A stretch of 64,000 bases of DNA from an uncultured Candidatus Micrarchaeota archaeon (GTDB taxonomy: Archaea > Micrarchaeota > Micrarchaeia > Burarchaeales > Fermentimicrarchaeaceae), in NCBI GenBank assembly GCA_963760615.1, contig CAVXDX010000003.1, positions 32,001 to 96,000 on the forward strand, written 5' to 3'. The position numbers and the translations under genes are program-made. This document shows, piece by piece, positions 19,250 through 55,533 of the stretch. The first letter of the stretch is position 1; each line of letters opens with the position of its first letter. Below the pieces are notes generated by a model. The model was not told the origin of the DNA. It did not search any database and saw only the letters and a list, made by a program, of their open reading frames with translations.

Positions 19250-19289
19250 GTGACATGCTCCACCCCTAAAGGGTGTGGGTTTCCCGCTC
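19250..19289 (-). mobile_element. IS200/IS605-family right-end-like hairpin, copy A
   Basis: minus strand AGCGGGAAACCCACACCCTTTAGGGGTGGAGCATGTCAC; homologous to 24215-24255 and 40292-40333. Confidence 0.7.
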
Positions 19290-19364
19290 ACCATGTTAAC
19301 TTAGAGATATCTTTATAAACACTGAAATTACATCTCATTCAAAGGTGAACTTTGAGGTGGTAGA

Positions 19365-25014: not shown

Positions 25015-25087
25015 CGCCCTGGCCGGGATTTGAACCCGGGTCACGGACTCGACAGGCCCGGATGCTGGACCACTACACTACCAGGGC
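25015..25087 (-). tRNA. tRNA-Asp(GTC)
   Basis: GCCCTGG/CCAGGGC acceptor stem, CT-GTC-GA loop, GGTTCAAATCCC T arm; CCA not encoded. Confidence 0.95.
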
Positions 25088-25089
25088 AA

Positions 25090-25192
25090 TCCCGCCAGGG
25101 TGATTTGAACACCCAACCATCCGGTTTCTGCTGGAAGAAAACCAGCAAAGCAAGCTACAGCCGGATGCTCTACCAAATTGAGCTATGGCGGG
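25090..25192 (-). tRNA. tRNA-Tyr(GTA) with a 29-nt intron (25126-25154) at position 37/38
   Basis: CCCGCCA/TGGCGGG acceptor stem (C1-G72), TCCGG/CCGGA anticodon stem split by a hairpin-forming intron, GTTCAAATC T loop. Confidence 0.92.
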
Positions 25193-50459: not shown

Positions 50460-51008
50460 ATGCCCGAATACTATGACTTGGATGTGCGGTTCTGGGAGGC
50501 AGGCTTGGAGAGTTATGCAAACTCCCTTGGTTTCAGAAGCATATGCAGCTTTTCCCCTCAGGGTAATGGCATGGAGATACGGGCTGGGAGGGACGAGGAC
50601 ATAAGGTTCAAAAAGGAGGGAAAAATTATTCTTGTTTCTTCAGATGACCCCGAGCTTCTGAAAAAAGCATGCAGGATAGATGTTGACATGCTGCTCTTCC
50701 CGAGGTTCACTGCCGAAGTTGGATTGGTGAGAGCCGCTGCCGAGAACAGGAAACCATTCGAAATTCCGCTCTCGCTTCTTTTGGTGAGAAGGGGTGCCGA
50801 AAGGGCGTTCCTCATGTCAAGGATACGCATCTTCCTAAAACTTTGCAACAAACATGGAGCTGACTTCATACTCACCAGTGGAGCTTCAGGCAGGCCTTTC
50901 ATGAAGTCTCCAGGCGAGCTCACCGCAGTTGGAGAAGCGCTCGGCCTGTCCCATGACCAGGCGGTGAAATCAATATCAATGGTTCCGGAGTATATCTTCA
51001 AGGGATGA
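50460..51008 (+). CDS. rnp3: RNase P protein subunit Rpp30
   Basis: PHP-like fold pattern, FEIPLS, FILTSGA...KSP-EL; next to pop5 in the superoperon. Confidence 0.85.
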   Translation: MPEYYDLDVRFWEAGLESYANSLGFRSICSFSPQGNGMEIRAGRDEDIRFKKEGKIILVSSDDPELLKKACRIDVDMLLFPRFTAEVGLVRAAAENRKPFEIPLSLLLVRRGAERAFLMSRIRIFLKLCNKHGADFILTSGASGRPFMKSPGELTAVGEALGLSHDQAVKSISMVPEYIFKG

Positions 51009-51012
51009 TGCT

Positions 51013-51318
51013 ATGATCCCCACAATGAGAGAAAAAAGAAGGTACATCCACCTCAGGTTTGAGTGCAGCCGTGCGCTCAGCGAAAGCGAGGCGAGGGATG
51101 AGCTCTACAATGCAATTCTCTCTTTCCTTGGTGAGATGGGCTTCTCAAAAGTCAGCCCAAAGCTTGTGGAATTCAACGACAACTCCGGCATCCTCATGTG
51201 CTCAAACCAAGAGCTTCAGAATGTCAAGGCTGCTTTGGCGCTTGTAAGCAAAATAAAAGGCGAGGATGGCTGCATACGAGTTCTGAAAGTTTCCGGGATG
51301 ATAAACAAACTCCAGTAA
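51013..51318 (+). CDS. rnp2: RNase P protein subunit Pop5/Rpp14
   Basis: PTMREKRRYI, FLGE-G and VLKVSG-INK motifs. Confidence 0.92.
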   Translation: MIPTMREKRRYIHLRFECSRALSESEARDELYNAILSFLGEMGFSKVSPKLVEFNDNSGILMCSNQELQNVKAALALVSKIKGEDGCIRVLKVSGMINKLQ

Positions 51319-51347
51319 GGAGATATGATTGAAAATGGGTAAGTATT

Positions 51348-51549
51348 GTGACATGCCCTTCATAAGCTTTTTGACCTCATGGGCTTCTTCCTTCAACGGC
51401 AACCTGCGGTGTCTCCAGAAGCGTTCATTCGGGAGTGCCCCTCCCTACTGCATCCCCCTGGTTATTCCCCAGCCGGCTTTGCGGAATGCAGGGGAAATGC
51501 CAGAAGCCATGCGTATTCCGACCCTCTTCGCCTACAGGTAGATGCAGTA
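51348..51549 (-). ncRNA. orphan TnpB omega/reRNA-like RNA with an extra 5' structured domain
   Basis: GAACG-CTTC-TGGAG...TTGAAG-GAAG-AAGCCC...hairpin...ATGTCAC core; TACTGCATCT/GGATGCAGTA closing stem; TTTATATA box at 51576-51569; no tnpB ORF. Confidence 0.65.
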
Positions 51550-51587
51550 AATAACCTCTGGAAGGACGTATATAAACCTTTTGGAGG

Positions 51588-51643
51588 GGTAACTTTCCAG
51601 TGAAAAGTGAATTTATGTGCAGACCCTAATTTGTGTGCAAAGC
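51588..51643 (-). repeat. repeat X (candidate IS200/IS605 left end) with an internal partial duplication
   Basis: TGCACATAAATTCACTTTTCACTGGAAAGTTACC versus 24175-24207; ACTTT(T)C-ACTG-GAAAGT hairpin. Confidence 0.6.
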
Positions 51644-51720
51644 CCCCCCAGGTGCAAGTATTTTAAACCTTAGATGCGAATTAATACCCGTAGTGTGTAG
51701 AGAGAAGAAGAGGTGAATTA

Positions 51721-52431
51721 ATGTATCCGGTTTCTCCGCAGGCATACGACCGAGCTATAACGGTATTCAGCCCAGATGGAAGGCTCTTTCAAGTAGAATA
51801 CGCAAAAGAGGCTGTCAGACGAGGAGCCACTGCAATGGGAGTTGTGTGCGCAGATGGGGTAATCCTTGTAGCGCACAAGAACATAGTCTCAAACCTGCTC
51901 GTGTTTGAATCAATGAAGAAGATATTCAAGATAGACAACCACATAGCTGCGACTGCATCAGGTCTTGTTGCGGATGCCAGGAGGCTTGTCGATATGGCAA
52001 GGCTCGAGGCGCAGAGACATAGGCTCATGTACAACGAACCCATGAGCGTCGAGTCCGTCTCAAGGCATCTCTGCGACGCCATGCAGAGTTACACGCAGTA
52101 TGGAGGGGTAAGGCCTTTTGGAGTTTCACTTCTCATAGCGGGAGTTGACGATGAGCCCAAGCTATACGAGGCCGAGCCAAGCGGCGCTCTGACTGGTTTC
52201 AAGGCAGATGCCATAGGGAGCGGTAAGAAGGAGGTTGATGAGTTCTTCGAGAAGGAGTACAAGGAAGGGCTCAGCATAGAAGATGGCATAAGCCTTGCCA
52301 TGAAAGCTCTTAAGAAGACAACCGACGCGAAGCTGAAGGCTGAGAATGTAGACATAGCAGAGATAGCGAAGGGTAAGAAACTCAAGGTGCTCTCCGACGA
52401 GGAAGTGAGCAAGTACCTCTCCAAGGCCTAG
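51721..52431 (+). CDS. psmA: proteasome subunit alpha
   Basis: YDRAITVFSPDGRLFQVEYA and RPFGVSLLIAG motifs. Confidence 0.98.
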   Translation: MYPVSPQAYDRAITVFSPDGRLFQVEYAKEAVRRGATAMGVVCADGVILVAHKNIVSNLLVFESMKKIFKIDNHIAATASGLVADARRLVDMARLEAQRHRLMYNEPMSVESVSRHLCDAMQSYTQYGGVRPFGVSLLIAGVDDEPKLYEAEPSGALTGFKADAIGSGKKEVDEFFEKEYKEGLSIEDGISLAMKALKKTTDAKLKAENVDIAEIAKGKKLKVLSDEEVSKYLSKA

Positions 52432-55293: not shown

Positions 55294-55533
55294 GTGGCCA
55301 AAGCACAGGTTAGATACGGAGCAGAGATGAGGAAGAGAGCTGATGCCGTTGACAGGCAGAGAGTTGCCAAATACGTATGCCCGAAATGCGGCAAGAAAAA
55401 GGTTAAAAGAGAAGGCCATGCAGTCTGGAAATGCAGGTCATGCGGTGCCACATTCGCTGGCGGTGCCTACTCGCTGACAACAGCAGTCGGGGAGACAGGA
55501 AGAAGAATAATTGCAGATGTGAAAAAGAGGTAG
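55294..55533 (+). CDS. rpl37ae: 50S ribosomal protein eL43 (L37ae)
   Basis: RYG---RK, CPKCGK...WKCRSCGATFAGGAY; GTG start after GGAGGTG. Confidence 0.93.
   Translation: MAKAQVRYGAEMRKRADAVDRQRVAKYVCPKCGKKKVKREGHAVWKCRSCGATFAGGAYSLTTAVGETGRRIIADVKKR

Follow-up and report, generated by a model that had tools for sequence, protein, structure and literature searches.

A promoter-driven omega-RNA-like cassette, probably derived from TnpB-only elements, at the pop5-psmA junction of a Micrarchaeota archaeon

Introduction

What fills the 402-bp gap between Pop5 and PsmA in a conserved archaeal superoperon? The question is raised by a window of 64,000 nucleotides (the whole stretch of DNA analysed, G000:C3:32001-96000) from an uncultured Candidatus Micrarchaeota archaeon whose genome comprises 1.14 Mb in 16 contigs. 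A preliminary description, made from the sequence alone, placed on the minus strand of this gap an orphan TnpB omega-RNA-like locus that has its own promoter and an additional 5' domain and lies antisense inside a proteasome/exosome superoperon. Comparison with relatives points to a cassette that descends from TnpB-only IS200/IS605-type elements of the same genome and has lost their protein gene. It carries a stand-alone omega-RNA that is expected to act in trans, a reading to which a probability of roughly 0.78 is assigned.

The pop5-psmA junction

The superoperon setting is confirmed by the genes for Rpp30, Pop5, PsmA, SBDS and Rrp4, all of which lie on the plus strand. The gap is occupied by inserted DNA that contains no protein gene: neither tnpB nor tnpA lies inside the element, and no tnpB adjoins it. 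The main features of the setting are the following (window coordinates, as throughout unless a contig is named):

50460-51008, plus strand: Rpp30, the gene upstream of Pop5
51013-51318, plus strand: Pop5, bordering the 402-bp gap
51662-51348, minus strand: the cassette, about 315 bp of inserted DNA
51721-52431, plus strand: PsmA, on the far side of the gap, followed by SBDS and Rrp4

Comparison of this junction among relatives, as the preliminary description proposed, finds it empty in the closest ones (G001, G003 and G002) and filled in the window. On the element strand, the empty site of G001 reads GGTTTAA-AATACTTACCAATTTTCC, and the window reads GGTTTAA-AATACTT-(308 bp)-AATACTTACCCATTTTC. 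The filled junction is longer by approximately 315 bp, a 7-nt direct repeat included. The insertion is recent, as the nearest relatives do not carry it. The minus-strand location given in the preliminary description is correct, but the antisense position within the superoperon is incidental, the cassette being a species-specific insertion. This recent and probably neutral insertion accounts for the 400-bp gap in the conserved superoperon.

Several other observations concern the surroundings. Across the genus, the stretch of ~94 nt before the psmA start (51627-51720) shows 86-95% identity, above the neighbouring coding sequence, and probably represents the psmA promoter (TATTTTAAAC) with a conserved leader. 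Directly after the exosome genes, an 89-aa plus-strand frame gives a weak, sub-threshold match to the TnpB zinc-ribbon domain (21 bits, 55306-55452); the frame probably encodes an unrelated zinc-ribbon protein belonging to the superoperon. Two neighbouring tRNA genes lie on the minus strand at 25015-25192, the second of which spans 103 nt and so probably contains an intron.

A family of stand-alone RNAs

The gap was searched by BLAST against the genome and 40 relatives, which uncovered paralogs of its central ~225 nt, and a covariance model (R1) was built from six paralogs. R1 identifies 13 full-length copies at 12 unrelated sites (159-223 bits) in four species of one genus. Four of these lie in the window's own genome, including C8:7710-7908 and C8:167346-167550. 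Metagenome contigs hold four more copies, all promoter-driven and without tnpB, and the motif was not matched in the viral contigs searched. The subfamily that includes the window copy is divergent: this copy shares 79% identity with the copy G001_C5 and 52-65% with the rest. In the covariance-model check suggested in the preliminary description, the custom model matches the locus and no Rfam family does so in the gap, either at gathering score or at E-values up to 10. The omega-RNA link consequently rests on the model built here.

The locus adjoins RNase P protein genes, and its antisense frames are almost free of stop codons, so that a different RNA class (a reduced RNase P RNA, SRP RNA or riboswitch) or a small plus-strand protein gene might be considered. 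A better match to RNase P or SRP RNA had indeed been named as an outcome that would speak against the omega-RNA. However, RNase P RNA is found at C12:33575-33816 and SRP RNA at C8:193692-193992, and identity with either was rejected, as both are located elsewhere and the gap has no Rfam match even at E = 10. A multi-copy RNA of variable location is also unlike a housekeeping RNA. The short plus-strand ORFs, of 70 and 74 aa (51329-51541 and 51379-51603), are rejected because indels between copies are not multiples of three, and the compensatory pair changes described below argue against a protein gene as well. This alternative is considered extremely improbable. On the antisense strand of most of the 13 copies, two frames contain 0-1 stop codons over ~200 nt, which is probably a compositional effect of the purine-rich RNA strand.

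Structure and covariation of the scaffold

All minus-strand features of the preliminary description (repeat X, BRE/TATA, the 5' domain, the stems, the hairpin and the terminus) are present in the cassette. In the direction of transcription, all on the minus strand, they are:

51569-51602, minus strand: predicted element-borne archaeal promoter (CACTGGAAAGTTACCCCTCC..TTTATA, "repeat X"), a motif match
51582-51577, minus strand: BRE-like AAAAGG, part of the promoter
51576-51569, minus strand: TATA box TTTATATA, part of the promoter
51348-51552, minus strand: omega-RNA-like scaffold of ~205 nt, 191.6 bits with R1
51448-51547, minus strand: multi-helix 5' domain of about 89-100 nt, closed by CUGCAUC/GAUGCAG, with helices 1-7 covarying
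51431-51445, minus strand: stem GGGAG/CUCCC with a conserved GGGCA loop, 5/5 pairs with double compensatory changes
51383-51430, minus strand: linker GAAUGAAC and nested helices 9 and 10 (CUUCU...AGGAAG), helix 9 covarying
51384-51355, minus strand: terminal hairpin, conserved in all copies
51356-51348, minus strand: right-end terminus GCAUGUCAC (GCATGTCAC), kept in all copies, which diverge directly after it

The RNA would start near 51546, as judged from the distance to the TATA box. Folded as a single sequence, it is no better than its shuffles (z = -0.54, not significant), and since Rfam also has no match, the case rests on comparing copies. In an alignment of the six paralogs made with MAFFT, RNAalifold predicts 49 pairs, 20 of which show compensatory changes. 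Across the 13 full-length copies, aligned by fitting to the covariance model, 93.8% of cells can pair, whereas slid controls reach 36-46%. Double changes affect 20 pairs, compared with 5-10 in the same controls. None of 500 shuffles reached the observed pairing values. The independent MAFFT alignment gives the same pairs as the model-fitted one. This covariation is a mark of selection on the family and not proof of activity in the window copy.

All five pairs of the GGGAG/CTCCC stem change on both sides. For the inner TTCCCC/GGGGAA pairing, the CC/GG core is kept in the family and the remainder is not. The CUUC/GAAG pairing, originally taken for the pseudoknot of the ISDra2 RNA, is a real covarying helix (helix 9), but its positional counterpart is ISDra2 stem 2. 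The ISDra2 pseudoknot itself pairs positions -5 to -3 with -105 to -103 (PMC10097598). By inspection, no convincing pseudoknot partner for the cassette terminus was found; the terminus is invariant, which makes pseudoknot covariation impossible.

Homology to the omega-RNAs of tnpB genes

The genome encodes at least six intact tnpB-like ORFs, and the 3' ends of four tnpB genes give weaker but significant R1 matches. Throughout the genus, 26 tnpB genes have a same-strand R1 match of 23-49 bits directly adjoining the part that encodes the TNB domain, which identifies the RNA as a homolog of the lineage's TnpB omega-RNA. The tnpB-linked RNAs have the same stem-loop in the form CCCCU-GGGCA-AGGGG, and both kinds of RNA share the outer helix GCCUG...CAGGAAGC, the terminal hairpin and an identical terminus, GCAUGUCAC. 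The inner stem is ~20 nt longer in the tnpB-linked RNAs than in the stand-alone copies. The clade-1 tnpB products have 381-400 aa, and tnpB ORFs of 381-383 aa stop 15-17 nt before the GTCAC terminus, so that the tnpB-linked RNA is embedded in coding sequence. A frame of the cassette reading AVGRGTPE* had been likened to a TnpB tail; this resemblance does not hold, as the tnpB frame reads ...ATPGQGGSNAC... through the homologous stretch.

The proteins of these genes appear suited to be partners of the RNA. Pfam assigns PF01385, PF07282 and PF12323 to the tnpB product, which matches ISDra2 TnpB (8bf8/8exa) with E = 5.6e-39. Aligned to 9yyg, a designed member of this nuclease family, the product has conserved acidic residues in its three RuvC motifs (GIDLG, LEKL and DRDLNAARNI) and a conserved CxxC..CxxC zinc finger. 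The tnpB genes of the genome thus look catalytically intact. Genes of a second tnpB clade encode 351-360 aa; their 3' scaffold is different, ends in GGTATGTCAG and gives no R1 match. One member (L030 775-1851, G000:C3:134942-136018) encodes 358 aa and agrees with the window cassette in promoter and left-end type.

The promoter provides a further link between the cassette and tnpB. Repeat X recurs at no fewer than 10 sites in the genome, before tnpB genes and sister RNAs. This motif of 30-35 nt lies ~27 nt upstream of the ATG in five tnpB genes of the genome and ~24 nt upstream of 11 of the 13 stand-alone RNAs, and the version common to the cassette and the five tnpB genes is GGAAAG(C/T)TACCCCTCC..TTTATA. 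The claim of a promoter-driven locus is supported to the extent that its promoter motif is that of the genome's tnpB genes. Taken together, the R1 link to 26 tnpB genes, the shared promoter, the shared terminus and the lack of tnpB indicate that the locus was correctly described as an orphan, promoter-driven omega-RNA-like locus with an extra 5' domain. At a sister cassette near G000:C8:~7908 (L002 1757-1790), the guide extends, in sense orientation, into the start codon of a downstream gene for a MarR-HTH and CTP-dependent riboflavin kinase protein, into which the promoter of this cassette could read.

The 5' domain

The extra 5' domain is real in that it covaries and occurs only in stand-alone copies. 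In helix 1, for instance, CUGCAUC/GAUGCAG covaries with CACCGCC/GGCGG in paralogs. R1 alignments show this domain deleted in all tnpB-linked homologs, and a search of tnpB elements for similarity to it (the last 400 nt and whole elements, on both strands) gave nothing above shuffles. A covariance model of the domain (R2), searched against 151 genomes of the class, matches the 13 stand-alone copies and one site inside a gatE-like ORF; the latter match was judged spurious. No tnpB-linked long form with the 5' domain was found among 61 relatives, the 151 class genomes and four metagenome contigs. As the RNA no longer has to be excised from a tnpB mRNA, the domain may help to stabilise or process it.

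Ends, insertion sites and mobility

The ends of the cassette and its flanks comprise the following features:

51663-51667, minus strand: candidate transposon-adjacent motif (TAM) TTTAA, directly 5' of the element left end
51656-51662, minus strand: left copy of the AATACTT repeat, of which the G001 empty site has a single copy (GGTTTAAAATACTTACC...)
51603-51655, minus strand: left-end remnant, with the motif TGCACA(C/T)AAATT duplicated
51341-51347, minus strand: right copy of the AATACTT repeat, equal to the first 7 nt of the guide position
51332-51347, minus strand: putative guide position AAUACUUACCCAUUUU, flank-derived, the 16 nt after the terminus
51335-51332, minus strand: run of four T, which may terminate transcription

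TTTAA or TTAA(C/A/T) occupies the equivalent place before the left ends of sister cassettes, tnpB elements and stubs, which makes TTTAA the likely TAM. At its left end, the window copy shares GGCTTTGCACATAAAT with two tnpB elements (C3:134703 and C7:56533) and the cassette G001_C20. However, the left-end hairpin GAGCGGGAAA-CCCAC...GGTGGG, present in the copy at C8:7658 and in tnpB elements, is absent from the window copy, and the right-end hairpin of the window copy differs in sequence from that of full-length elements. IS200/IS605 insertion generates no flanking direct repeat such as the 7-nt AATACTT. TTTAA precedes the left end as expected of target-motif insertion without duplication, yet this repeat flanks the insert. 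With this repeat, the sequence immediately before the psmA TATA box is re-established, and one may speculate that the recreated psmA-proximal sequence was selected. In six genomes of the genus, no Y1 transposase TnpA (PF01797) was found.

Other sites record related events. On the minus strand at 19250-19319, a TTTATAAA box is followed by TTAAC and a fused-end element of ~45 nt, in which a single hairpin connects the start of a left end (GAGCGGGAAACCCAC) with the right-end terminus GAGCATGTCAC; the genome contains seven or more stubs of this type. The pop5-psmA junctions of G005 (L010) and G004 (L011) carry a different insert of ~80-100 bp that starts after TTTAAAATACTTA and includes a left-end-like motif (GGCTTTGCACATAAATT) and no omega-RNA. 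At yet another location, one syntenic site is filled both in G000:C8:167346-167550 (L037) and in G002:C1:715320-715518 (L046). The two copies are alike in promoter and RNA and unrelated in their left-end regions. Their RNAs are not mutual closest relatives (76% identity, compared with 82-89% to other copies), which suggests recurrent insertion or conversion and weakens their interpretation as an orthologous pair (G000_C8b, G002_C1) under selection. Together with the G004/G005 insert, this site hints at recurrent use of the same sites.

The missing left-end hairpin and the lack of TnpA in the six genomes, along with the many decayed derivatives in the genome (including the stubs of roughly 45 nt) and the placement of the window copy in a divergent subfamily, could indicate an inert relic. 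The cassette would then be a decayed miniature element with an inactive RNA, and its structural signal would reflect only past selection on an active master copy. This is regarded as unlikely. The window copy scores 191.6 bits with R1 and has kept its promoter, every helix and the terminus intact, and its insertion is recent, absent as it is from the nearest relatives. Compensatory changes moreover separate the subfamily of the window copy and G001_C5 from the rest, showing that structure was maintained on that branch too.

The putative guide and a proposed mode of action

The 16 nt after the terminus would serve as the guide. They match the G001 empty site at 15 of 16 positions, beside TTTAA. 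No second guide target (with three or fewer mismatches next to TTTAA) was found in the genome, and three other guides of the genome match only themselves. The absence of a second target fits a flank-defined homing guide, not a domesticated regulator.

Domestication as an antisense or TldR-type RNA had nevertheless been suggested. The RNA could guide a repressor-type TnpB in trans, or the cassette could regulate pop5 or psmA as an antisense or promoter element. Its position on the psmA promoter, with transcription pointing into the 3' end of pop5, would suit such a role, as would the AATACTT repeat next to the psmA TATA box and the other site, where two species have retained promoter and RNA despite a diverged left end. 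However, the two copies at that site are not mutual closest relatives, the closest relatives of the window's species have no insertion at the pop5-psmA junction, and the 13 copies are spread over 12 unrelated sites. In addition to the missing second target, the tnpB genes keep their RuvC residues, so that no dead TnpB is evident. A domesticated role is therefore judged quite improbable, and the suggestion is not upheld.

The favoured reading, a protein-less TnpB-element derivative with a trans-acting guide RNA, implies the following sequence of events. About 315 bp were inserted just 3' of TTTAA at the pop5-psmA junction. The tnpB-type promoter would drive minus-strand transcription of the ~205-nt scaffold together with a guide read from the flank (AAUACUUACCCAUUUU). 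Because the 3' ~100 nt of the scaffold are homologous to the omega-RNA embedded in clade-1 tnpB, loading in trans by those nucleases is expected. The complex of TnpB and RNA would recognise TTTAA followed by a guide match (TTTAA-AATACTTACCCATTTT), i.e., the unoccupied junction, and cut it. Cutting of the empty junction would favour retention or homing of the cassette, as in the published TnpB homing model. The occupied allele, in which only the 7 nt after TTTAA match the guide, should be immune.

A more far-reaching proposal is that the stand-alone RNAs, instead of being debris of deletions, form an independently evolving guide-RNA lineage which left the tnpB frame, shortened its stem, gained a 5' module and became an RNA-only selfish element homing via TnpB. 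This proposal is tentative and somewhat doubtful at present. If true, a lineage without detectable TnpA in its genus would persist and re-occupy the same sites purely by borrowing TnpB. The family offers a natural, compact case of a guide RNA uncoupled from the nuclease ORF, with its own promoter, a conserved extra domain and a trimmed stem. It could reveal the requirements of a TnpB guide RNA that has ceased to be processed from a tnpB mRNA, and could test whether guide-directed homing alone maintains a transposase-free element.

Comparison with known systems

One counterpart of the scaffold is the omega-RNA (reRNA) of ISDra2 from Deinococcus radiodurans (PDB 8bf8, 8exa, 8h1j). Both RNAs place the scaffold at the right end with a 3' guide and several stems, both have a core of ~100-130 nt and a 5' extension, and their partner proteins belong to the same family. 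In ISDra2, the 5' region (-231 to -117) is disordered and dispensable (PMC10097598), whereas the 5' domain of the cassette, compared by position, is structured and conserved. The ISDra2 RNA also overlaps the tnpB ORF, and its TAM is TTGAT, unlike the TTTAA proposed here. In Haloquadratum walsbyi, core-deleted PATEs of IS1341/IS605-type elements consist of end-hairpin stubs only. The cassette resembles them as a non-autonomous archaeal derivative of a tnpB element that retains its ends, and stubs likewise occur in its genome; unlike them, it still has a promoter and the complete guide-RNA scaffold.

In TldR systems, the guide RNA lies beside a dead TnpB and its guide matches a host promoter at another locus (10.1101/2023.11.30.569447). 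The cassette RNA is similar in being a TnpB-type guide that does not simply serve an adjacent active nuclease. It differs in that there is no TnpB next to it and no second target, and the TnpBs checked keep their catalytic residues. The "orphan" passages of the TldR preprint were considered as a parallel, but they concern oppA genes and are not relevant here.

The closest parallels are the stand-alone omega-RNAs of OMEGA systems and the PATEs that carry omega-RNAs. In the account of Altae-Tran et al. (2021) given in PMC10691335, stand-alone omega-RNAs are mobilised, lack an effector and act in trans, and their biological role is described there as unknown. PATEs of Geobacillus stearothermophilus "often encode omega-RNAs" that need TnpB in trans (Meers et al., 10.1101/2023.03.14.532601). 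The cassette is likewise a protein-less IS200/IS605 derivative with a guide RNA at its right end, it co-occurs with effector-carrying copies, and trans action is expected here as well. Subterminal hairpins at both ends like those of full-length elements, as expected of a PATE, are not found in the window copy, which has no left-end hairpin and is flanked by a 7-nt repeat. It further differs from these systems in that it belongs to an archaeal (DPANN) lineage in whose genus no TnpA was found, in that its RNA is joined directly to the tnpB promoter, and in that this RNA has a conserved, covarying 5' domain and a shortened internal stem. Since stand-alone and PATE-borne omega-RNAs have already been described, the cassette is of a known kind; it stands out as a variant by its promoter fusion, its shortened stem, the conservation of its 5' module and the apparent lack of TnpA in the genus.
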